The notes beneath the pieces were generated by a model that was not told the DNA's origin, did no database searches, and worked only from the letters and a program-made list of their open reading frames with translations. Position numbers and translations under genes: made by a program. A stretch of DNA of 64,000 nt, taken from NCBI RefSeq assembly GCF_003018255.1, contig NZ_CP027440.1; one strand, written 5' to 3'. Of this stretch, positions 1-57,027 are shown piece after piece (positions within the stretch are counted from its first letter, which is position 1; each line of letters opens with the position of its first letter). This DNA comes from Escherichia coli. GTDB lineage: Bacteria; Pseudomonadota; Gammaproteobacteria; Enterobacterales; Enterobacteriaceae.

Positions 1-159
1 AACGCTGCGTCGAGCAGCTGGCGAACTGGCATAAAGAGCTGGAGGAGTATAAGAACGCCTCCCGGATTGATATTAAACCGTCACGGGAATATGCCAGCAC
101 AATCATGAACGCTATCTGGACTGGCGAGCCGAGTGTGATTTACGGCAACGTCCGTAACG
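1..159 (+). pseudogene. melA: melA alpha-galactosidase (GH4), upstream part of reading frame, interrupted by prophage insertion at ~159/160
   Basis: Frame 3 reads ...NAIWTGEPSVIYGNVRN then V-stop inside prophage end; same frame resumes at 39000 as NDGLIDNLPQG...DWLPGWLHR*. Confidence 0.7.
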
Positions 160-176
160 TATAGCGCGGCGATTTT

Positions 177-242
177 TTTGATACCGATTTGCATTTCATT
201 TGATACCGCTGAAAAACGCCGATACGCAACTTATTTGATACT
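177..242. repeat. Right-end transposase-binding site cluster (three TTTGATAC(C) repeats)
   Basis: tttgataccg at 177-186, ttgataccg at 199-207, tttgatact at 234-242; reverse complements occur at the other prophage end. Confidence 0.6.
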
Positions 243-287
243 AAATCGGCGCTTTTCTTTTGAGTTTTAGAATGAGTTTTTAAGCGC

Positions 288-1025
288 TCATTCACTCTCT
301 TTCAAACCAGTTTTAACTGTTTGTGGTTTTGGGTAAGGCTGGACTTTGAATAGCTTTGTGTTGAGGCGTTTTCTGGCCCTCTTGTTCAGAAACCGGATGT
401 AACGAAACTGTCGGAACTTATGCACACTGGCTCTGTCGATATTAGCCCTCAGATGTTCACCTCGTTGTCCGCCTCGTTTAATGGCACTCCTGCAAATCTC
501 GTGATACCACTCGCCATCAAGTTCATAGAATGTTGATTCATGGCTGCCTACATAATCAAAATTGCTTGCCTGATACACGACACCAAGACAGCCACAACGC
601 TCATCTGCAAACGACTGAACCCACTGTACCTGCGGATAAAGCTGCCTGATTAGCTTGAGCGCGTAACTGATTGCCCTTGATTCGGAGTTTCTCGGCATAC
701 AGTCATGCATCCATAGCCGGTTAAGCTCCATATATTCTCGGTTCTGCGTACCCGTTACGACGCGTGCACCACTGTTTGGGTTAAGGGCGTAACCCCATTG
801 CATTACGCCAACAAGTTCCCGTTCTGAAAATATACCCAGATGAAGGTAGGAATTATTTACGAAACGGTGGCTGTAATGTTTATTGACGATAACCAGTCTG
901 GCCAGCCAGCAACTTATTGTCTCAACCCGCAACTCACGGGAGCCATAACCAACGATATTGTCGTTATAGCGAATAAGTTCAGGCGTGCTGATGATACGGG
1001 ATGTGACTTGCTTTCTGTTCCCCAC
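288..1025 (-). CDS. mom: Mom-like DNA modification protein
   Basis: 245-aa ORF at the Mu right-end position, overlapping the 3' end of com as in Mu; assigned by position and resemblance to Mu Mom from memory. Confidence 0.8.
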
Positions 1026-1179
1026 GACAGGATTTCCTTGTGTATGTGGGGTGCTCTGTGGCGCTCGGAGATGTGATTTGATTGAGGGTTTTACAGCGCG
1101 GACATTTTACTTCCAGATAACTGAAACTGGCCCGTGCCAGTAGCTTATTGCAGTGTCGGCACCGTATGTTTCGATACAT
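979..1179 (-). CDS. com: Com zinc-finger translational activator of mom
   Basis: [14 protein letters not shown]...CPRCK matches Mu Com C4 zinc finger; ATG at 1179 preceded by AGGAGG; track start at 1224 is a TTG extension. Confidence 0.8.
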
Positions 1180-1380
1180 GGCCGCATAACCTCCTGCTTT
1201 GTTGTTGATGCCTTTCTCATGCAATCGATCGACAAAAACGATCGATTCGATTTGTTTAATTGATACAACAAATAGATTTAAAAGTCATCAACAATGATTC
1301 AGGGCGGTGATTATTTACTTAAAGAAACGAAGAGTTAGGTGGTGAAAACGATCATAAAATGATCATTTTATTGACTTTTT
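1180..1380 (-). promoter_or_regulatory. com-mom upstream regulatory region with clustered Dam (GATC) sites
   Basis: GATC at 1227, 1240, 1350 and 1361; palindrome cGATCAtaaaaTGATCa at 1349-1365; Mu Pmom is known to be controlled by Dam methylation of upstream GATC sites. Confidence 0.5.
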
Positions 1381-1585
1381 ATACAGTGAAGGTAGGATCG
1401 CGCGTATATGTAGTATGTTTCAAATCAACAGGATACTACATAAAAGGGAAACCCAGCATAGCTGGAACTATGCTGGGTCAATCTGTAAAAACTTGCATCA
1501 ATGCTTTACTTCGAGCTCGTGGCGTATCCTATGATATTCCCCGGTCTCCTGTAAAGCAGAGATGCATAAAAAGGAGATCTTTATC

Positions 1586-1756
1586 ATGGATAAAGAGCCT
1601 GTTTGCCCTGCCTGTAAGACTCCCTTACAGCTCATCTATCGCCGTTCTCGATCTCAAAATGGCAAGACATACAAACCAAAAAATGCTTCCTGTTTCAGGA
1701 TGCTGATATGTCCTGCCTGTTCTCCCCGGAGGGAAAATACACAAAACGTGCATTAA
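1586..1756 (+). CDS. Small zinc-ribbon protein (CPxC...CPxC), hypothetical
   Basis: 56-aa ORF MDKEPVCPACKTPL...LICPACS with AAGGAG Shine-Dalgarno 8 nt upstream of ATG; opposite strand to the late operon. Confidence 0.5.
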   Translation: MDKEPVCPACKTPLQLIYRRSRSQNGKTYKPKNASCFRMLICPACSPRRENTQNVH

Positions 1757-1794
1757 CAAATTCACCCGGCAGGGAAACCTGCCGGTCGGTATTG

Positions 1795-2040
1795 TTACAT
1801 CATAGTACCGTCAGTTCCGGGTTGAACCGGCTCTGGTTGCTCTACGGGTTGAGGCTCATTTTCCGTGCTGTTTTCAGCCGGAGAACGACCAACCATTCGG
1901 GCCAGCACTTCATCAACATATGCGTCGATTTGTGCCTCAAAATCCTTGCGAACCTGCGCCTTCAGCACGCGGTTCACTTCTTCAGAATAAAGTGCCTGTT
2001 TGACAAGCTCTTCAGTAACCGTGCCTTTAATCTCTGGCAT
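1795..2040 (-). CDS. Hypothetical acidic protein (81 aa), cargo
   Basis: ORF MPEIKGTVTEELVKQ... with Pro/Glu-rich C-terminus; downstream of esterase and small membrane gene on the same strand. Confidence 0.45.
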   Translation of the reverse strand: MPEIKGTVTEELVKQALYSEEVNRVLKAQVRKDFEAQIDAYVDEVLARMVGRSPAENSTENEPQPVEQPEPVQPGTDGTMM

Positions 2041-2075
2041 GAATATTCTCCTTTCCTTTTCTGGTTCACAAAAAA

Positions 2076-2255
2076 TTAAATCTGACCGGAGTCTTTCGGC
2101 TGCGGCATTACAGCACCGCTTTTTATCTTTTCCTCGGCAGCTGCATCAATTTTATTTCGAAAATAATTGCGAATAATTTTATAACCACCGCTGACAAGCA
2201 ACAGACAACAAACCACCGTGCAGAAATACAGCAGGCAGACGTTTATATATGTCAT
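2076..2255 (-). CDS. Small membrane protein (59 aa), hypothetical
   Basis: Hand translation MTYINVCLLYFCTVVCCLLLVSGGYKIIRNYFRNK...; N-terminal hydrophobic helix, GAGG SD upstream; below the 60-aa cutoff of the ORF track. Confidence 0.45.
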   Translation of the reverse strand: MTYINVCLLYFCTVVCCLLLVSGGYKIIRNYFRNKIDAAAEEKIKSGAVMPQPKDSGQI

Positions 2256-2312
2256 ATAAGCCTCACTCTTATTAACTGATGTTACAGCCGGATAAATTCC
2301 CGGCCGTCACGA

Positions 2313-4361
2313 TTATGCCGCAGGGGTATTAACCTCAAGGACAACGCTCTCAAAAGACACGCCATAAGTTGCCCCTTTGGTGACATCTGTCAGTGTCAGC
2401 GTATCTTTGGCAGGGGAAAGTGCATCTTTCACCATCTGGAATGCCTGGCCCGGAGTGCCATCCAGCACAGGCGTTACCTGGGCACTTCCCGCCGTAAACT
2501 TCAGGACAAGTGTATGCCACTGGTTATTGTAGGCTCCAAATGATCCCAGTTTCGTATTCCCCCCTGTTTTATGGTGCATCAGATTTAACTGGCCGCCTGT
2601 TGTCTGGAGATAATACGCCATCAGGAACGGTGTGCCTGTACCACTCATGGTTACACCTTCCGGGACCGTATCGGTGTGGAGGTAAATACCCAGAGCAAAC
2701 TGGCCTTCTTTTACTTCACCTGACAGACGGAATTTACAGGTCAACTGACCACCATGCTTCAGAAGTTCACCGGCTGCATCAGTTCCATGGGTAAGCGTCC
2801 AGGTTTTTCCGCTTTGTTTGGATACGGTCAACGCTTTACCTTCGTCCGTCAGCTGGATTGTACCATCTGTAATTTTCCAGCCCTGAGCCGGGGCTTCTCC
2901 TGCTGATGCTTTAAGTGAAAGCAGCGTACGGAGTGACGGGGATGTCGGATGGGGGGACTCACTGCCTCCTGGCTGACTACCTGTCGGCGCTTCCGGTTTC
3001 CCACCCGGCGCGGGCTGAGGCAGGGCTTCACCATCAGGGGCCACACCGGCAATAAATGCAGAGGTCAGACCTGCATATTTAAGAATTGCTGATGCAAAAC
3101 GATCTGAGACCAGAAAACGGCGCGCCCAGGAGCTAAAATGGGTTGCCCTGGATGCTGTTGTCCAGTTGCCATCTCCCCGTGATTCCGCACCATAATACCC
3201 GGCAGAAGCGATATCCGGGTCGTGCTCCGGCAGGTTGGTCGCGGTTTTATTACCGAACTCATCGTGCATCAGTGGAACAAAGTGAATGTTCTCGGAAGCC
3301 CGGTTTTTATATCCGCTATAAATGGTTTCATATGCCGCCGGGTTCTTCTCTTTCCAGTCATAGGTTGTGTCACCACATAACCACGGCACACTGTCTGATG
3401 AACCACCAATACACTGACCGGAGAAAGCACCAAGATCCGCACGGAATTTTTTCACCATCGCAGTAAACTGGGCACCATGCTGGGCCGGGGTCGCTTTAAG
3501 GTCTCCTTCCCCCTGAATCCATACGACAGATAACAGCACATTCTTTGGATTCGCCTCAAGTGCCGCTTTAGTTCGACTGACAAGATCCTGATACAGTGGG
3601 GTATCCACTCCCCAGCGTAGTGACGCCTCGGCTGCACCACTTGCCGGATCGAATGAGCCAACTGCGCCGGTTGTAAAAGCAGAGCCGCCACGGGCACAGG
3701 GAACCAGTAAAATCCCGGCATCAGCAGGAATCACCGGTAATACTTTTTTCGCAATATGAAGTCCCTGCCCCACACAACCATACTGCCCTTTTTTCAGGTC
3801 TGCTTTTGGATGGTTCAGCAGACTCATATTCTGAACATCATGAAGGCAGTGATCTGCTGGAATGATTTCATTGTATTTGCAGGGAATACCTCCGGGGGTT
3901 TGTGTATTCCTGCGTGCCAGCTGCATAATACGTGGATCAGGACGATCATAAGAATCCGGAAGGGGCAACCCTTCACCATAAGATGAAGCATTGGACTGGC
4001 CGGCTATAACAATCACGTAATACCAGGAAGGGGAGCTGGAAGCAGTTTCATTTCCTGACGGACGGGTATGTGTTTCAGCATTATCCCAGTCTGACGGTTC
4101 AGCAGTACCGGCAACATCAGCACTTAACGGAATGACCGCACCAATACCCGCTCCGGTAATTTCCACACTCGGATCACCGGATACTGGCCTTACCCACAGG
4201 CAATCCCGTGTATTAAAACTGATGAGACAGTCAGCAAATGTCATTCCTCCTTTTGTTTCGGCCGGAGGAAAGGGAGCCTCAAGAAATGCCGCTGTACCAC
4301 CGGAAACTTTAACAGTAAAGTTTCCGGGCATTGATGATAGTTGAACCCATTTGGACGTCAT
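2313..4361 (-). CDS. SGNH/SASA-family esterase (sialate O-acetylesterase-like) with Pro-rich linker and C-terminal beta-sandwich lectin-like domain; NanS-p-like
   Basis: 682 aa; GQSN nucleophile motif (VIAGQSNASSYG), WIQGEGD block, PQPAPGGKPEAPTGSQPGG linker, Gly/Thr-rich C-terminal domain. Confidence 0.55.
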   Translation of the reverse strand: MTSKWVQLSSMPGNFTVKVSGGTAAFLEAPFPPAETKGGMTFADCLISFNTRDCLWVRPVSGDPSVEITGAGIGAVIPLSADVAGTAEPSDWDNAETHTRPSGNETASSSPSWYYVIVIAGQSNASSYGEGLPLPDSYDRPDPRIMQLARRNTQTPGGIPCKYNEIIPADHCLHDVQNMSLLNHPKADLKKGQYGCVGQGLHIAKKVLPVIPADAGILLVPCARGGSAFTTGAVGSFDPASGAAEASLRWGVDTPLYQDLVSRTKAALEANPKNVLLSVVWIQGEGDLKATPAQHGAQFTAMVKKFRADLGAFSGQCIGGSSDSVPWLCGDTTYDWKEKNPAAYETIYSGYKNRASENIHFVPLMHDEFGNKTATNLPEHDPDIASAGYYGAESRGDGNWTTASRATHFSSWARRFLVSDRFASAILKYAGLTSAFIAGVAPDGEALPQPAPGGKPEAPTGSQPGGSESPHPTSPSLRTLLSLKASAGEAPAQGWKITDGTIQLTDEGKALTVSKQSGKTWTLTHGTDAAGELLKHGGQLTCKFRLSGEVKEGQFALGIYLHTDTVPEGVTMSGTGTPFLMAYYLQTTGGQLNLMHHKTGGNTKLGSFGAYNNQWHTLVLKFTAGSAQVTPVLDGTPGQAFQMVKDALSPAKDTLTLTDVTKGATYGVSFESVVLEVNTPAA

Positions 4362-4460
4362 AATAATCAGCCTGTTCCTGAATAAACTGAATTATCATAT
4401 CCACAGACCGATAAACGCCATTTTGCGTTAATTCAGTAAAGGCCCAACAAAGAGAGCGTC

Positions 4461-5021
4461 TTATTTTTCCGAAACGCTCGCAGGATAATAACGATAAAGG
4501 GTTGAAAGACCGATATCAAAAATAAGTGCCACCTGTCTTCGACTGACACCCCCGGCCAGTAAACGCCCGACCTGCTCGTATTGTTCCTGCGTGAGACGGC
4601 GGGGTCTGCCGCCGGTTCGTCCCCTTTCACGGGCAGCTGCAAGACCAGCCCGTGTCCGTTCGACAATTAATTCACGCTCCATTTCTGCCAGCGCACCCAT
4701 TATGTGAAAAAAGAAACGCCCCATGGGGGTTGACGTATCAATGTTGTCAGTAAGACTACGAAAATTTATCCCCTGTTGCTGTAATTCATCTGTCAGCGCA
4801 ACAAGGTGGCGCATACTGCGCCCCAGCCTGTCCAGTTTCCAGACCATCAGTGTGTCACCGGGTTTTAGTTTCTTCAGTGCCCGCTTCAGTCCCGGCCGCT
4901 GTGTCGTTTTACCACTCATTTTGTCTTCAAAAATCTGCTCACATCCTGCACATTCCAGCGCATTTCTTTGTAAACCGGTGTTCTGGTCATTTGTTGATAC
5001 GCGTATATAGCCAATCAGCAT
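4461..5021 (-). CDS. gin: Gin/Hin/Pin-family serine DNA invertase
   Basis: MLIGYIRVSTNDQNTGLQRNAL...GRFFFHIMGALAEMEREL closely matches Mu Gin. Confidence 0.95.
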   Translation of the reverse strand: MLIGYIRVSTNDQNTGLQRNALECAGCEQIFEDKMSGKTTQRPGLKRALKKLKPGDTLMVWKLDRLGRSMRHLVALTDELQQQGINFRSLTDNIDTSTPMGRFFFHIMGALAEMERELIVERTRAGLAAARERGRTGGRPRRLTQEQYEQVGRLLAGGVSRRQVALIFDIGLSTLYRYYPASVSEK

Positions 5022-5075
5022 GTATTTACCTTCCTTAAAAAGAGGTGAAAATGCCTTTTAAAACAGATATACGGT

Positions 5076-5101
5076 ATCCCTGAAAACCTCGGTTTACGGG
5101 A
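5076..5101. other. gix-like recombination site (gin-proximal)
   Basis: tccctgaaaacc-tc-ggtttacgggaa resembles Mu gix (TTATCCAAAACCTCGGTTTACAGGAA); 28-bp perfect inverted match with 6437-6464. Confidence 0.7.
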
Positions 5102-5471
5102 AACGGTAAATAAGGCTGCTGATGCCCTGCCATCGGGTGGAACCGCCGTGGCAGCAAACAGACTCGCCACCCCAAGAAATATTAATGGCGTTCCTTTTGA
5201 CGGAACGCAGGATATCAACATCACGTCAGGAATGACGCAGTCAACCGCAGATGGCCGGTATGTACAGAATGTTCAGCTTGGAGCACAGAGCTATCATTCA
5301 CCCGGAGGCAATGAAATATCATGGAATTACAGCGCACCTTCCGGTTGTATGCTTTCCGGTATTAACGTGCAGGAAACCGGCTCCCGGTCTGCGGACAATA
5401 TCGGTGGGGTCTATTATCGCCCGGTTCAGATTTATATTAATAATGCCTGGAGAACGGTAAGTTCAGTGTAA
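5091..5471 (+). CDS. Alternative tail-fibre C-terminal segment (Sv'), promoterless, expressed only after inversion
   Basis: Plus-strand frame GLRETVNKAADALPSGGTAVAANRLATPRNINGVPFDGTQDINITSGMTQS... parallels the C-terminus of the tail fibre on the minus strand. Confidence 0.65.
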   Translation, partial: GLRETVNKAADALPSGGTAVAANRLATPRNINGVPFDGTQDINITSGMTQSTADGRYVQNVQLGAQSYHSPGGNEISWNYSAPSGCMLSGINVQETGSRSADNIGGVYYRPVQIYINNAWRTVSSV

Positions 5472-21008: not shown

Positions 21009-21129
21009 ATTGCCTCCGTATAAAATATGAATATAAAATAAGCAGGCGGTCAGTGTACGCTTAACTGGTAAAGTCGGTGCCTGCCTCCGGGTGGATCATG
21101 TATGCGGGTTCGACCCCCGCCACTGACCG

Positions 21130-30184: not shown

Positions 30185-30366
30185 TTATGTTTTCCAGTAA
30201 TACGGATATATATGTCGATAAGAAGATTCATAATAAACAGGAAGAGCGACATCCTGATAAAGAACCAAATATCTGGCATCATGGACAGGTTTCCTGTAAT
30301 CGCAAATATAACCCCCCCCCCCAACACCGGAACGAAAATTGCGAAAAATACAAGTCTCTTTATCAT
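30181..30366 (-). CDS. Small two-TM membrane protein containing an 11-nt poly-G tract
   Basis: MIKRLVFFAIFVPVLGGGVIFAI...; C11 run on plus strand at 30312-30322. Confidence 0.5.
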   Translation of the reverse strand: MIKRLVFFAIFVPVLGGGVIFAITGNLSMMPDIWFFIRMSLFLFIMNLLIDIYIRITGKHK

Positions 30367-30914
30367 GGCGTTAACTCCCGTAATACAGCGTCCTCGGCAG
30401 TCCGGCGATGGTGATAAATAAAATTCACCGTACTCTCGGATAATTCAAATTTCTCGCCTATTTCCCGGAAGGTAAGACGTCGTGGTGATTCAGCATCCCG
30501 TAATTCACGAATAAGATGAACATCATCGTCAGGTATACGGGTGAAGGGCAGCAATTCTCCGTATTTTTTCATGCTTACGCCAATATATCGCGCCCGATTG
30601 TGGACAGAATCCCGGTCTCGCCCCAGATATTCTCCTATTTGCTTACCGGTCATCGTTCTGGCATTTTTTCGGATAAATTTATCTTCATCATGTTTAAATC
30701 TTGGACGTTTGCATTTGAGCAACTCCGGGTAAGTACCGCGTAATAAAACAATCCGGTTATGTACACCCCAGAAACTTCTTTTTACCCTGACAGCAATATC
30801 CTTAACCGGGGTGGATGGATAAAGCGCAATCAGCAGCGCATCTTCTTCAGGTGTCCACGCACGGACATGAGCAGGTGCCTGACCTTTTCGCCCCATGGGT
30901 TGTAAAATCATCAT
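30363..30914 (-). CDS. Hypothetical early protein with C-terminal HTH-like segment
   Basis: LTFREIGEKFELSESTVNFIYHHRR helix-turn-helix-like. Confidence 0.5.
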   Translation of the reverse strand: MMILQPMGRKGQAPAHVRAWTPEEDALLIALYPSTPVKDIAVRVKRSFWGVHNRIVLLRGTYPELLKCKRPRFKHDEDKFIRKNARTMTGKQIGEYLGRDRDSVHNRARYIGVSMKKYGELLPFTRIPDDDVHLIRELRDAESPRRLTFREIGEKFELSESTVNFIYHHRRTAEDAVLRELTP

Positions 30915-32609: not shown

Positions 32610-33140
32610 TTATTTATTCAGTCCGGCGTCCTGTTCAAAAGGCTCGACATAAAAACTTTCAGCGCCTTTATTCACCTTAATACCGGCAATGCCTTTCACT
32701 GCATCCGGCTCCGCCAGGACCGCTTCCTTGTTCACTTCCTCTTTCGTGCGGATGAATCGCTCAAGCCCCATACGGCGCAGCATTTCAATCACACCTTCCA
32801 CATCACGGCTGACGCTGCATGATGGATTTCCCAGCCGCCATGATACTGTTCCGGTGGTCAGATTGGCTGTTTTGGTTTTGCCGCCGTTCGTCAGCTCATC
32901 GCGGTTGGTTTTGCACCAGTCCTGAATCCCCTTAAAAAGCACTTTGATTTCTTTTTTAAGGTTTTCAATCTGCGGCGTATAACGGGCGGTGATTTCTGCC
33001 ACTTCATCATTCATCGCCGTTTCCAGCCGCAGCGCCTCTCGCTGAATATCGCCCAGGGTACGGATATCGCGGCTGACTTCTTCGCGGGTCTGCGGTGCAG
33101 CCTCGGCTGCGGCCTTTAATTTTGTAACACGTTTAGCCAT
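32610..33140 (-). CDS. gam: Gam host-nuclease inhibitor (DNA-end binding)
   Basis: 176 aa, MAKRVTKLKAAAEAAPQTREEVSRDIRTLGDIQRE... matches Mu Gam. Confidence 0.85.
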   Translation of the reverse strand: MAKRVTKLKAAAEAAPQTREEVSRDIRTLGDIQREALRLETAMNDEVAEITARYTPQIENLKKEIKVLFKGIQDWCKTNRDELTNGGKTKTANLTTGTVSWRLGNPSCSVSRDVEGVIEMLRRMGLERFIRTKEEVNKEAVLAEPDAVKGIAGIKVNKGAESFYVEPFEQDAGLNK

Positions 33141-33151
33141 TTTGTTTTTCC

Positions 33152-33445
33152 TTATTGCAGTGTGCCTGATGCTTTATGCACGCGGTGGCGTTTAATGATG
33201 GCATCCGCCCCAAAAGCCTGTACAGATGCCTGAAATTCCGCTGAGAGAAACTGAATAATTTCAGGACTGTGATACTGGAGAATACTTGCATAAACGTCAC
33301 AGAGTGACGTCGGCCTGTTATTCGTATCACGTTCTGTTTTTACATCCACACCAATCTTTTCATGCACTTCAACACAGTCATTGCCTGCCGGTTTTTCGTC
33401 ATGCGAAACATGCTTAAATTCAAAAATAACGCGTACTTTGCTCAT
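33152..33445 (-). CDS. Small hypothetical protein, paralogue A (start MSKVRVIFEFK)
   Basis: N-terminus nearly identical to adjacent gene. Confidence 0.5.
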   Translation of the reverse strand: MSKVRVIFEFKHVSHDEKPAGNDCVEVHEKIGVDVKTERDTNNRPTSLCDVYASILQYHSPEIIQFLSAEFQASVQAFGADAIIKRHRVHKASGTLQ

Positions 33446-33449
33446 GGAA

Positions 33450-33722
33450 TTACCCCTGCTGATTAAATTCATTACCTTTAATAACCCCGGAACGCATGCT
33501 CATATCTTTCATGAGCGCACTGGCTTTCATTGCCACAAGTTCAGCAAAGTCTCTGCTTTCCGCGAGCATAACCACCCCAAAAATCATGGCGGGTCCATCA
33601 CCTTTCTGCTTTATCCCGGTTGAACGTATGTCCAGACTTACCCCCATGCGCACTGTTCCATCAGCGTTTTTATGGATAACGTGCTCCTTGTATTCGAAAA
33701 TAATGCGTACGACTTTACTCAT
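33450..33722 (-). CDS. Small hypothetical protein, paralogue B (start MSKVVRIIFEYK)
   Basis: Tandem diverged duplicate of 33152-33445. Confidence 0.5.
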   Translation of the reverse strand: MSKVVRIIFEYKEHVIHKNADGTVRMGVSLDIRSTGIKQKGDGPAMIFGVVMLAESRDFAELVAMKASALMKDMSMRSGVIKGNEFNQQG

Positions 33723-34000
33723 CCTCTGGTCCTCGTTCTGTTTGGATAACTGACCCGGCGTCTGACCTCACGGCAGAACCGAATCATGGCATTAAAGGCT
33801 TCTTCCTCCGTCACCGCTTCCGGTATCCCCGGAACCAGTAACTGCTCCTGTTCATCACGTCCATGACGCGCCATAACCTCAATCACATGCCGTACCGTGG
33901 CAGGCTTTCCGGCAACTATCGGCAATGCACCTTCCGGCAGGACGTAACCAAACTCAATAAGACCACTCGACCACGCCCATGCAATGAGATTTTTTTTCAC
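33719..34000 (-). CDS. Hypothetical early protein
   Basis: 93-aa ORF. Confidence 0.45.
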   Translation of the reverse strand: MKKNLIAWAWSSGLIEFGYVLPEGALPIVAGKPATVRHVIEVMARHGRDEQEQLLVPGIPEAVTEEEAFNAMIRFCREVRRRVSYPNRTRTRG

Positions 34001-34001
34001 C

Positions 34002-34268
34002 TCACACCTCCCAGTAAACCGTGCAGCCGCTGATGCGGGTGGCCTTCACACGGCGGCGCAGGCCGTTGGTCTGTATGGTGATTTCAATTTCACCGGTTCC
34101 CTGCACGTTGCCTACCGGCGGCGTGGTTTTCAGTGCAAAACGTTGCGGATAGCGCTTACTGCGTTCCAGTACCGCACCGGCAAGTTCGGTCAGACGGCGC
34201 GCGCTGTTCAGGGAGTCGAATAAATTCATTTTGTTACCGCAGGATTGCATATTCATATAACACCTCAT
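34002..34268 (-). CDS. Hypothetical early protein
   Basis: 88-aa ORF. Confidence 0.4.
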   Translation of the reverse strand: MRCYMNMQSCGNKMNLFDSLNSARRLTELAGAVLERSKRYPQRFALKTTPPVGNVQGTGEIEITIQTNGLRRRVKATRISGCTVYWEV

Positions 34269-34496
34269 TTAGCTGACTTGTTTCGCACCAACAGAACGGC
34301 ATATTCCGCTGTAAACGTCTGTCGCACCTTCGCGATCAAGTCCGGCAGATATCACCATTCGTGTGCGGTCATTAAATTCAAAAAGAAAATCGCCACATTC
34401 TTTATTTTCGGCCAGTGAAATCACCTTCACGTTATCGAAATTAACCAGGTAAAAGCGTCCGTAAATATCAGGAATATTAAATACCGCCATAATCAC
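34269..34496 (-). CDS. Hypothetical early protein at kil position (directly after B)
   Basis: 75-aa ORF; position only. Confidence 0.4.
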   Translation of the reverse strand: MIMAVFNIPDIYGRFYLVNFDNVKVISLAENKECGDFLFEFNDRTRMVISAGLDREGATDVYSGICRSVGAKQVS

Positions 34497-35425
34497 ACCT
34501 GTGAGAGTAATTCAGGGTTGGTATAAACCTCTTTAAAGGCCGCATTAATATGTTTTTCTGTCAGCGCCGCGCCTTCACCGCTGGCGGTGAGCCACGCCTG
34601 GTTAAGCGTATGTGTCAGAACGCGTAACGCTCCCGGCTTTTCAGCGATAGCCTGCATGACGGCCAGCTCGGCCTCACCACTGATCCCCCACGCCCTGGCA
34701 ATGGCCAGCACATCCGCCTTTTTGGCCTTGCGAAGTTGTTTTGTACGGGCAAGACGGCTGAACAGGCGCGATAAATCATCAAAGGCGCGGCGTCCACCTT
34801 TAAACAATCCGCGCGGGTTACCAATAAGCACCATCCCGATCCCCGTGGCGTCCTGAATTGCCCGGAGTTGCTCCAGACCGTCAATACCAAGATGATCCGC
34901 CTCATCCACAATCACCAGTCCACGCGTTCCCATCAGGCGACGGCGGATGGCGCGGGATAATGCCCCTTTGTTCGCGCGGGTGTAATCAATCCCCAGCGCA
35001 TCGGCCAGCTCCAGCAGACACTCCGTGACGCTGGAGTGCGCGGGTGACAGGGTGATCATCCAGGTGTTTGGTTGCTCCTGGCAGTAATTACGGGCAGTGG
35101 CCGTTTTACCCACACCCGGTACGCCCACAATAACGTTAATACAGCCCATCAGACGAACCGCCTGAAACAGTGCGCGCAGCTCCTGGACTGTCTGCGTTTC
35201 CACAAACTGCGGCGGTTCCGGCAGTGCGCTTTGTTTATTCCAGTTCTCATACCAGGAACGCAGGGAAGCAGCCACAGCAGCGTTATCGCCTTTATATTTT
35301 CCCTTACGGAAAGCCGATAATGTGCCGTCGGAAATTCCCGCCTCTCTGGCGATGGCATACTGCGTCAGTACGCCGCCATCAATAAGTTCATCAATGGTCT
35401 TGATTACATCGTTAATATCAGTCAT
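34493..35425 (-). CDS. Transposition ATPase B (MuB-like, AAA+)
   Basis: Walker A GVPGVGKT, N-terminal HTH-like region; directly downstream of transposase. Confidence 0.9.
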   Translation of the reverse strand: MTDINDVIKTIDELIDGGVLTQYAIAREAGISDGTLSAFRKGKYKGDNAAVAASLRSWYENWNKQSALPEPPQFVETQTVQELRALFQAVRLMGCINVIVGVPGVGKTATARNYCQEQPNTWMITLSPAHSSVTECLLELADALGIDYTRANKGALSRAIRRRLMGTRGLVIVDEADHLGIDGLEQLRAIQDATGIGMVLIGNPRGLFKGGRRAFDDLSRLFSRLARTKQLRKAKKADVLAIARAWGISGEAELAVMQAIAEKPGALRVLTHTLNQAWLTASGEGAALTEKHINAAFKEVYTNPELLSQV

Positions 35426-35496: not shown

Positions 35497-37587
35497 TCAG
35501 GCCAGCGGGTCATTTTCTTTTAATTTCGCTTCCAGCAACTGCAATCCCCGCTGGAAATTACGCTCGTATTCTTCATCAGGTTCATCGTCAGCGACCGGTT
35601 GCTGAACGGTCACCGTATTACCCACAGGGCGGTATATGTTTTCCAGCCAGGGCTCCTGCGGCTTGTGCTCCAGCACGTTGACAACCTCATCCTCGGCATC
35701 ACGGATTTTTTCCTCTGCGCGTTTACGCATGCCTTTAAGGCGTTGCTGCTGTTTGTAGTATTCCGCGCTAACCGGGAAGGCTTCGCGTTTATTACCGTCC
35801 CATACCGCCTCGCAAATCACGCTGCCATCCAGGCGACGTACGGTAATTCGTTCGGCATCATGAATGTCATAGCTGATAAGCACCTTACGACCATGCTCGT
35901 CACGCAGCTCGGGCGCGTAGTAAATATTATTCAGCCAGCGTATTTCACAGCGTCTTACAGGGCGTTCCACCATCGGCCGGAACATATCCCGCAGCTCAAC
36001 ATCGGACAGCCATTCAATTTCCGTGTCCTCTTCCGCCAGGCGTTTTTTTCTGAACTCCGCCGGGCTGTAATGCTTGCCGTTCGGCTTCACCGGTAATTCA
36101 TCGTGCGGCCGGTTGTTGTACCACTCAACACCGTCACGAATGGCATCAATCAGTTCAGACCAGGACGGTAAATCACGCATCGCTGACTGCTGCCGGGCGT
36201 TCAGCCGTTTGCCCTGTTGCAGGGCAGTAAATGCCGAGCGTAAATCGCGGTTGGTTTTGCGTAACGTCTCGCGATCTGCACCTTTCCCGAAATAGGTGCG
36301 GTATTTACGGGCTATGCGCATCGGTAATGTGCGGTTAAGCCGTTCGATAATGCCTCGTCCCTGCGGATTACCGGCAATCCCGGTCGGGTGATTAATCCCC
36401 AGTCGCGGCAGTATCCCCACAACCTCCTTATCCAGGATGTCGGCGGTTTCCCCGGAGCCGTTATCCGAGTAATACAGAAACGGTTTGCCGTGATGGCGAA
36501 TGCCGTGCTGTATGGCACCGGCTACGGCGAAAACATTTTCAGCCAGGTCAAGGCTCCAGCCCACCACAAAGCGCGTGCCACCGTCGATAACAAAGGTCAC
36601 TTCCGGTGCAAATGGCCGACCGTGAACCGGGTGTGCGCATTTCAGCTTCATGCCGTGACCGTCACCAATCCAGACATAATTCACCGGCATTCTGGACCAG
36701 TCGCGGCGCGTGAATCCCTCAAGCTGGCGGTATTCACTGCCGGTCACCCGGCCTTTTTGTTTCACCACTTCCGGCAGTTTCTTCATTGCGCGGCGAATGG
36801 TGTCATAAGACGGCATGATATCGAGCATATAAGGCTCATCAGCGTGCCGGTGCTGCCATTCAGCGACAAAATCCTCGTAAGCCTCGGTCATTGGTCGGCC
36901 GTTTGACTGGCGATACTGCGCCAGAAATTCGGGCAGCCAGTTAATATCTTCAGCTTTTATTTCCTGGCGCTTACCCGGTGCCAGTAAAAGCAGGCGTTCA
37001 GCGGCGTTCTGCGCCTTGTTAAAGGCCGCAATCCAGCGTTTCAGCGTTATTTCACTCAACGCACGGCTGTTTCCCTTTTTGGCGTTCGCCGTCTCAACCA
37101 TTGCCACAATGCGCTCGTCCAGTTGCGAACGTGCCAGGTTGTCAACGATAAACCGGATAGCTTTCGCACAGCTGAAACCGGGTTGTTGCGCGACTTTCAT
37201 CACTTCGCTGACGATCGCAATTCGTGCATCAGCCACCTGGCGCTGGTTTTCAGTCAGGGCATTAAGGCGTTCAACCATCAGTTGTGGTGATCCGCGATAT
37301 GCCTCCACCGCATCAACCACGGCAGGCGAGCGTCTGGCCTTTGTCACCACCGGAGCCGGTGATTCATCAGCTTTTTGCGTCATCAGTTGAAGGGCATAAC
37401 GTTCACGCAATACTTGTTGCGCGCCAGAAGGCAAACAATCGATATTAAATTCGATTGCTTTTGTCCCCTTACGTTTGCGTAACATGGCTGCATTTCCCGC
37501 AGCTGCTTTTGTGAGTCGATGGCGAATGTTATGTTCCATCATTGGTAAATCAGGAAGACCAACACATTCTTTTGCTGTTACCCACAT
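35497..37587 (-). CDS. DDE transposase A (MuA-like)
   Basis: 696 aa, N-terminal MWVTAKECVGLPDLP resembles MuA. Confidence 0.9.
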   Translation of the reverse strand: MWVTAKECVGLPDLPMMEHNIRHRLTKAAAGNAAMLRKRKGTKAIEFNIDCLPSGAQQVLRERYALQLMTQKADESPAPVVTKARRSPAVVDAVEAYRGSPQLMVERLNALTENQRQVADARIAIVSEVMKVAQQPGFSCAKAIRFIVDNLARSQLDERIVAMVETANAKKGNSRALSEITLKRWIAAFNKAQNAAERLLLLAPGKRQEIKAEDINWLPEFLAQYRQSNGRPMTEAYEDFVAEWQHRHADEPYMLDIMPSYDTIRRAMKKLPEVVKQKGRVTGSEYRQLEGFTRRDWSRMPVNYVWIGDGHGMKLKCAHPVHGRPFAPEVTFVIDGGTRFVVGWSLDLAENVFAVAGAIQHGIRHHGKPFLYYSDNGSGETADILDKEVVGILPRLGINHPTGIAGNPQGRGIIERLNRTLPMRIARKYRTYFGKGADRETLRKTNRDLRSAFTALQQGKRLNARQQSAMRDLPSWSELIDAIRDGVEWYNNRPHDELPVKPNGKHYSPAEFRKKRLAEEDTEIEWLSDVELRDMFRPMVERPVRRCEIRWLNNIYYAPELRDEHGRKVLISYDIHDAERITVRRLDGSVICEAVWDGNKREAFPVSAEYYKQQQRLKGMRKRAEEKIRDAEDEVVNVLEHKPQEPWLENIYRPVGNTVTVQQPVADDEPDEEYERNFQRGLQLLEAKLKENDPLA

Positions 37588-56951: not shown

Positions 56952-57027
56952 TGGTGCCCGGACTCGGAATCGAACCAAGGACACGGGGATTTTCAATCCC
57001 CTGCTCTACCGACTGAGCTATCCGGGC
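56952..57027 (-). tRNA. pheU: tRNA-Phe (GAA)
   Basis: Reverse complement is GCCCGGATAGCTCAGTCGGTAGAGCAGGGGATTGAAAATCCCCGTGTCCTTGGTTCGATTCCGAGTCCGGGCACCA. Confidence 0.97.

Follow-up and report, generated by a model that had tools for sequence, protein, structure and literature searches.

The stretch of Escherichia coli DNA analysed here (64,000 nt of contig NZ_CP027440.1 from assembly GCF_003018255.1, hereafter the window) holds a Mu-like prophage of the EHEC type, in which all early genes lie on the minus strand. Two small tandem genes, hereafter gene A and gene B, occupy its early operon immediately ahead of a Mu-type gam gene. The interval 33152-33722 singled out in the first-pass annotation corresponds exactly to these two genes, both on the minus strand. 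The features of the early operon are given below from upstream to downstream.

35497-37587, minus strand: transposase, marking the start of the early operon together with the MuB-like ATPase
34493-35425, minus strand: MuB-like AAA+ ATPase, near the start of the early operon
34269-34496, minus strand: early gene of 75 aa (phrog_3375)
34002-34268, minus strand: Kil-like gene, an 88-aa ORF called as 84 aa by PGAP (phrog_2679)
33719-34000, minus strand: 93-aa gene (phrog_1518, labelled 'host nuclease inhibitor' in PHROGs)
33719-33722, minus strand: ATGA in which the stop of the 93-aa gene and the start of gene B overlap (translational coupling)
33450-33722, minus strand: gene B, 90 aa, beginning MSKVVRIIFEYKEHV..., basic, pI 9.45 (RefSeq WP_000049432.1; phrog_4107)
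33453-33457, minus strand: AGGGG Shine-Dalgarno sequence of gene A, within the last codons of gene B
33450-33452, minus strand: stop codon of gene B, 4 nt from the ATG of gene A
33152-33445, minus strand: gene A, 97 aa, beginning MSKVRVIFEFKHV..., pI 6.6 (RefSeq WP_000049304.1; phrog_2230)
33149-33153, minus strand: AAGGA Shine-Dalgarno sequence of gam, overlapping the stop codon of gene A (33152-33154)
32610-33140, minus strand: Mu-type gam, 176 aa, product 57% identical to Mu Gam (phrog_491), directly downstream of gene A

A GAGGA Shine-Dalgarno sequence precedes the ATG of gene B by 7 nt, and 11 nt separate gene A from gam, the ATG of which lies at 33140. The promoter and terminator scan revealed no promoter beyond chance on the coding strand within the early cluster, and its sole terminator-like match there (34803-34779, inside the MuB-like gene) is within chance expectation; an Rfam scan of the cluster returned no RNA element. 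The tight packing and the lack of internal promoters or terminators beyond chance fit one long early transcript, as in Mu (PMC3325207), and the spacing of the genes suits coupled translation. The semi-essential (SE) region of Mu is carried on the long early transcript with the Mu genes A and B, is deletable, and comprises 14 ORFs, most of them without an assigned function (PMC3325207, PMC3820752). Functions of the SE region are harmful or lethal to the host (PMC3325207). In the present prophage, genes A and B belong to this semi-essential portion of the early operon.

The neighbours of the pair deserve a closer description. The Gam protein of a related locus matches PF07352, and Mu Gam is a Ku-like protein that binds DNA ends (PMC3820752). 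The first-pass annotation had placed the pair next to the RecBCD inhibitor Gam; gam does adjoin gene A, but it is of the Mu type, whose product is a Ku-like end-binder (PMC3820752) and not a direct RecBCD binder of the lambda Gam type, so the 'RecBCD inhibitor' neighbourhood is functionally looser than had been implied. Some alleles of the 93-aa gene are also labelled 'host nuclease inhibitor' by PGAP, and no match in Pfam or NCBIfam stands behind this label. The 183-aa 'DNA-binding protein' encoded downstream of gam (30363-30914, minus strand) matches Mu gp9/E8 over its residues 66-166 (E=7e-9). Gene 9 of Mu lies upstream of gam, and the module is found here across gam, with an extra N-terminal part.

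Genes A and B are real coding genes. The 701 bp of the window that hold them were present in 231 of 5426 complete E. coli genomes, with both genes spanned in 225 of the 231, and both were intact in at least 225 of the 5426. Both are under purifying selection (dN/dS of 0.34 for gene A and 0.30 for gene B), and values below 1 indicate that the two genes encode functional proteins. The plus-strand ORFs that overlap the region were rejected, having no support, while the selection fits the minus strand. A 106-aa reading of gene A with a start at 33472, taken from the mechanical ORF list, was likewise set aside; the MSKV start at 33445 is preferred because it is the PGAP start, is preceded by the AGGGG Shine-Dalgarno sequence and is common to all family members.

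The near-identical N-termini from which a duplication had first been suspected were confirmed by BLASTP, in which 12 of 17 residues of A and B were identical (E=9e-4 in a single comparison). The subsequent divergence was equally evident, for pairwise similarity is undetectable past about residue 45. That this similarity is confined to 17 residues would suit a likeness arising by chance or convergence, for example under a translation-initiation constraint, between unrelated proteins or between ORFs that are not genes. Comparison of the family alignments of A and B with hhalign yielded E=1.3e-5, improving to E=2e-7 with larger alignments (93.6% probability over 43 columns), and bridging subfamilies extend the relationship over 70-85 columns. 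The two proteins also share a predicted topology and are both under purifying selection, and synonymous differences in the shared codons point to conservation at the protein level. A chance resemblance is therefore highly improbable and can be regarded as essentially refuted.

To collect relatives of the pair, 80 viral-contig loci were anchored on Gam. The family HMM of A aligned almost end to end with an 89-aa protein of Mu-type prophages (type C, MAKVIFEFN...) that is 97.8% identical to D108 gp7, and a motif scan added Mu gp7/E6 (87 aa, MAKVIIEIKN...) and an 85-aa type D. The five groups A, B, C, D and gp7 aligned collinearly over their full length in MAFFT. Profile comparisons by hhalign connected A with C (E=5e-11, 78 columns), C with D (E=3e-13, full length), D with gp7 (E=5.6e-10), A with D (E=7.5e-6) and B with D (E=2.3e-5, 70 columns). 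Direct profile comparisons of A and B with gp7 were not significant, and Mu gp7 matched the PHROG of A at E=0.009. For their C-terminal halves, the connection between A and B is transitive only, running through the D subfamily with moderate probability (76-84%).

A and B also carry the traits of this family: a length of 85-97 aa, the N-terminal motif M-[AS]-K-[VI]-x(0,1)-[VIR]-[VI]-[IF]-E-[FIY], of which I7 and E9 (numbering of A) are nearly invariant across the family alignment, and a position in a Mu-like early operon between kil and gam or a gam substitute. On profile comparison and the bridging subfamilies, the tandem diverged paralogues proposed upstream of gam thus belong to one family, and with high confidence A and B can be assigned as adjacent, diverged members of the gene-7 family of Mu (E6) and D108. 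Like Mu gp7 (E6, AAF01086.1) and D108 gp7, they are small proteins with the same N-terminal strand, a collinear alignment and an early-operon location. In Mu and D108, by contrast, a single gene 7 is followed by gp8 and gp9 before gam, whereas two tandem copies adjoin gam here; the identity of A and B to Mu gp7 is only about 15-24%, and a C-terminal His closes the proteins of the gp7, C and D subfamilies (...CH, ...RH, ...KH), as against TLQ in A and QQG in B. In PHROGs, A (phrog_2230, E=1e-40), B (phrog_4107, E=1e-61) and Mu gp7 (phrog_10252, E=8e-57) fall into separate groups, all of 'unknown function', which are joined here, together with the D-type group, into one superfamily. The literature search yielded no work on the function of Mu gp7/E6 or of A and B.

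The predicted structures are in keeping with a common architecture. AlphaFold2 monomer models were built from family alignments of 32-33 sequences, which are shallow and come from one bacterial family. The model of A (mean pLDDT 77.3) contains strands at residues 4-21 and 24-39, helices at 48-58 and 60-77 and a disordered tail at 85-97; that of B (mean pLDDT 81.3) contains strands at 6-18 and 24-35, a helix at 44-73 and a disordered tail at 84-90. The order of elements is the same in both, a long beta-hairpin and then a long helix, and the helices start in the same alignment columns. Both proteins are accordingly predicted, with moderate confidence, to fold as a long beta-hairpin packed on a helix of about 30 residues, followed by a disordered and variable C-terminal tail.

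Foldseek searches with these models against BFVD and AFDB50 returned nothing at E<=0.001. The top matches (E=1.6e-3 and 1.2e-3) were two uncharacterized proteins, one viral (82 aa) and one from Salmonella (98 aa), that probably belong to the family; the Salmonella protein, the best AFDB50 match of B (TM 0.72/0.67), may be A-like. Strand 1 is the most conserved feature of the family, with one hydrophobic face and the stripe [KR]-x-I-x-E on the other. Its two-fold pattern of charge, hydrophobic residue and charge is what an antiparallel strand1:strand1' dimer would need, which suggests that the proteins probably dimerise through the conserved N-terminal strand.

The distribution of the family is narrow. 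A profile search of 5.8 billion proteins returned 102 members, all from Enterobacteriaceae and none with a Pfam domain, in E. coli, Shigella, Salmonella, Citrobacter koseri and Mangrovibacter, and tblastn added Mu, SfMu and Mu-like phages isolated on Yersinia pestis. The gene-7 family is thus confined to Mu-like elements of Enterobacteriaceae and to the Mu-like phages isolated on Yersinia pestis. Word-indexed searches in which A or B was the sole query returned only E. coli proteins above 68% identity, and phmmer of A against 1.84 billion representatives retrieved only its own cluster and fragments. Among isolated phages, tblastn of A and B recovered only two Stx-phage records with an inserted Mu-like phage.

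The copy-number survey that the first-pass annotation had called for, carried out on the 80 Gam-anchored loci, showed that only this prophage lineage has two copies. Among window-type loci (Gam at least 94% identical), 38 carried intact B and A, one (L043) had both genes truncated and one (L021) had A alone. Exactly one copy was present in 31 of 39 Mu-type loci (Gam 54-61% identical), namely 10 of the gp7 type, 20 of the C type (one frameshifted) and 1 of the D type, and the family HMM detected no gene-7 member in the other 8; two further loci had too little upstream sequence for the copy number to be judged. A and B are not orphan paralogues but members of the gene-7 family, which is single-copy in most Mu-like phages; gene A is the copy directly upstream of gam, and gene B is an extra copy in this prophage lineage.

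Two of the surveyed loci merit separate mention. In L081, one of the 8 without a detected member, a shorter ORF immediately upstream of gam (3246-3488) encodes 65 aa from MAQVVIDINDDGQ...; it was missed by the HMM and has the look of an additional gene-7 family member, one that is very acidic. L084 (Mangrovibacter sp. MFB070, 2739-5152) is a degenerate Mu-like element with a DUF3164 protein in the place of gam and a 228-aa product that combines Pfam matches to the Mu-transposase HTH and the MuB C-terminal domain, and it keeps kil, a D-type gene-7 member and a 93-aa-type gene.

In several Mu-like lineages, the 93-aa gene accompanies members of the gene-7 family, in varying order. The order is 93-aa gene, B, A in the window, D followed by the 93-aa gene in Salmonella- and Mangrovibacter-type elements, and the 93-aa gene followed by C in L070; the 93-aa-type genes lie at 3246-3500 in L076, 4268-4522 in L084 and 2961-3227 in L070. 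In prophages with A only, the 93-aa gene has disappeared save for a 3' remnant of about 70 nt. In some Mu-type prophages, a copy of the 75-aa gene lies between kil and the gene-7 member.

Gene B was never seen without gene A among the 80 loci, and even a B that is 55% identical (P0100) is still paired with a 97-aa A downstream. Gene A, on the other hand, occurs alone in strain CI5 as in L021. In both, kil is followed by a 74-nt spacer and then by A, and alignment matches this spacer to the leader of B in the window, namely the 3' end of the 93-aa gene. The occurrence of the same leader before B in the window and before A in CI5 and L021 indicates that a single gene unit is gained or lost when the two-copy state changes. 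One E. coli genome (P0022) encodes a hybrid of residues 1-49 of B and 79-97 of A joined at 'FG' dipeptides, a deletion in which the dipeptides are out of register. In P0012, P0020 and P0021, frameshifted copies of A run into an alternative frame (window ORF 33133-33330). The frameshifted and truncated copies in some genomes indicate that genes A and B can be lost in lysogens.

No other gene of the local cluster varies as much among window-type prophages as A and B do. The minimum amino acid identity was 0.55 for A and 0.77 for B, at the dN/dS values given above, compared with 0.91 for gam (dN/dS 0.09), 0.92 for the 93-aa gene (0.11), 0.94 for kil (0.09) and 0.82 for MuB (0.10). Next in variability comes the 75-aa gene behind MuB, with a minimum identity of 0.73 and a dN/dS of 0.21. 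The dS of A is raised as well (0.35 versus 0.18 for gam), which points to exchange with distant lineages. Considering that dN and dS are both raised and dN/dS stays below 1, the variability may reflect such exchange or relaxed constraint rather than an arms race.

Exchange is also apparent across phages. The same map position is occupied by the gp7 type in Mu, SfMu and some Yersinia phages and by the C type in D108. Mu and D108 are close relatives, yet they carry different subfamilies at one position, and gene 7 thus behaves as a swappable unit. The ORF7 products of SfMu and D108 share less than 50% identity (PMC4406740). The family also spans a wide range of charge, with pI values from 4.8 to 9.45 (C 4.8, variant A2 4.9, D and gp7 5.6, A 6.6, B 9.45) and net charges of -1 for A and +2.7 for B.

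How the pair arose can be weighed on these data. Duplication in place is favoured as the somewhat likelier origin. In such a course, unequal crossing-over between the similar 5' ends of A and B would lead to gain or loss of one repeat unit, and the common leader, found before B here and before A in CI5 and L021, is what this process would be expected to leave. A and B also share Ser2, an Arg at position 5/6 and a His after strand 1, all absent in C, D and gp7. The pair could instead have been assembled by recombination that brought together two already diverged gene-7 variants from different Mu-like phages. A resembles the C subfamily (E=5e-11) far more than it resembles B, the C-terminal half of B aligns with D and not with A, gene 7 has demonstrably been exchanged between phages, as Mu and D108 illustrate, and the dS of A exceeds that of gam; this origin is accordingly a genuine possibility, if on the doubtful side. 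The shared residues, the common leader and the constant company of A wherever B occurs speak against it and for duplication in place.

Searches for known relatives of the two proteins gave consistently negative results. Pfam searches of A and B, even at E<=10, and of all 32 family members returned nothing beyond one marginal match to RraB (PF06877), which was treated as chance and not as membership. NCBIfam and PADLOC gave no match to A or B, and hence no defence or toxin-antitoxin model, and the PDB sequence profiles nothing below E=0.06. No structural or housekeeping phage protein, the competing identity raised in the first-pass annotation, was found among the relatives of the pair, nor did PADLOC, Pfam, NCBIfam, PDB sequence or fold searches link it to a known inhibitor or anti-defence family. 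The Pfam, NCBIfam, PADLOC and PDB sequence searches likewise tied the family to no enzyme, virion protein or known regulator. Mu-type Gam and the 93-aa neighbour share with A and B the operon, the early timing and the character of small accessory proteins. Neither A nor B matched PF07352 or, by BLASTP, Mu Gam, and no sequence or profile similarity to the 93-aa protein was detected.

Phage inhibitors of defence systems and nucleases, such as lambda Gam, DNA mimics of the Ocr/ArdA type and anti-CRISPRs, are small, early, non-essential, fast-diversifying and variable in copy number, and they cluster with other genes directed at the host. The likeness of A and B to these proteins is a functional analogy, with no homology detected. 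A DNA-mimic mechanism of the Ocr/ArdA kind was rejected on charge, neither protein being strongly acidic. Judging from position, small size, variability and copy-number change, the inhibitor-family reading offered in the first-pass annotation is nevertheless plausible for A and B.

More specifically, A and B are tentatively proposed to be non-enzymatic early accessory proteins that bind a host protein. The reasons are the early position by kil and gam, the small single domain, the conserved core with a variable hairpin and tail, the swapping of subfamilies at one position, the copy number of 0, 1 or 2, and the dispensability in lysogens. The proteins would be made early in lytic growth and would act by binding. 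They would form dimers through the N-terminal strand stripe [KR]-x-I-x-E, either as separate homodimers or as an acidic/basic A/B heterodimer, and would be directed at a host protein, for which a factor of defence or of DNA metabolism is the most plausible candidate. Specificity would lie in the variable hairpin and tail, and the second copy could widen or split the range of targets. Against this proposal stand the lack of similarity to any known inhibitor or anti-defence protein and the dN/dS below 1, which leaves exchange or relaxed constraint as possible sources of the variability; moreover, B is basic in a mostly acidic family, and the two proteins need not work by the same mechanism. The moderate confidence of the models, the moderate link between the C-terminal halves of A and B and the loss of the genes in some lysogens count against it as well. 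Taken as a whole and weighted to its functional part, the explanation that joins the tandem gene-7 family with host-protein binding is given somewhat less than an even chance.

A bolder version extends the proposal to the whole family, in which the gene-7 proteins would be polymorphic early anti-defence or host-takeover proteins directed at a host factor that differs by subfamily (gp7, C, D, A and B), the pair then representing two specificities or a heterodimer. This extension is considered rather unlikely. The exchange of very different versions and the duplication are marks of a host-interaction determinant.

A and B might alternatively be small, dimeric factors that bind DNA or RNA and adjust Mu transposition, replication or early expression. 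Most members are acidic, no nucleic-acid-binding motif is present and the variability is extreme, which makes this role improbable. A role on the side of the lysogen, either in superinfection exclusion or defence of the host or as a toxin-antitoxin-like pair of A and B, is rated lower still. It draws on the low-level Pe transcription in lysogens and a possible benefit of SE genes to the host (PMC3820752), on the lethality of SE-region functions (PMC3325207), and on the small size, coupling and opposite charge of A and B. Most relatives are single-copy and A occurs alone, however, so the pair is not obligate; PADLOC, Pfam and NCBIfam gave no matches, and truncated or frameshifted copies are tolerated in lysogens. 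Binding of a host protein early in lytic growth thus remains the preferred, if tentative, reading.

On present evidence, the pair is a duplicated member of a known, uncharacterized family and not a new kind of system. Gene 7 of Mu, D108, SfMu and the EHEC-type Mu-like prophages can now be treated as a single family, and the lineage with the duplication occurs in roughly 4% of complete E. coli genomes. The five subfamilies of about 90 aa form a small candidate set for anti-defence screens; otherwise, the result is a tidier annotation of two hypothetical genes.

Several minor observations concern the prophage as a whole. RefSeq annotates a 'tRNA-OTHER' on the opposite strand of L085 (7951-8030; strain 90-3040, identical prophage), between the virion-morphogenesis and head-morphogenesis genes, which would correspond to about 21050-21129 on the plus strand of the window. 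ARAGORN predicted no tRNA there, and the only tRNA of the window is a tRNA-Phe in the host flank (56952-57027, minus strand). The left end of the prophage lies at about 38999/39000, and the host flank at 39001-42500 matches the yjdF / fumB / dcuB / melA region of E. coli; this prophage-host junction is common to no complete genome in the collection. The same prophage type was found elsewhere in etk (EH031) and in a ComEC/Rec2 gene (90-3040), and such varied insertion sites are expected of a transposable phage.
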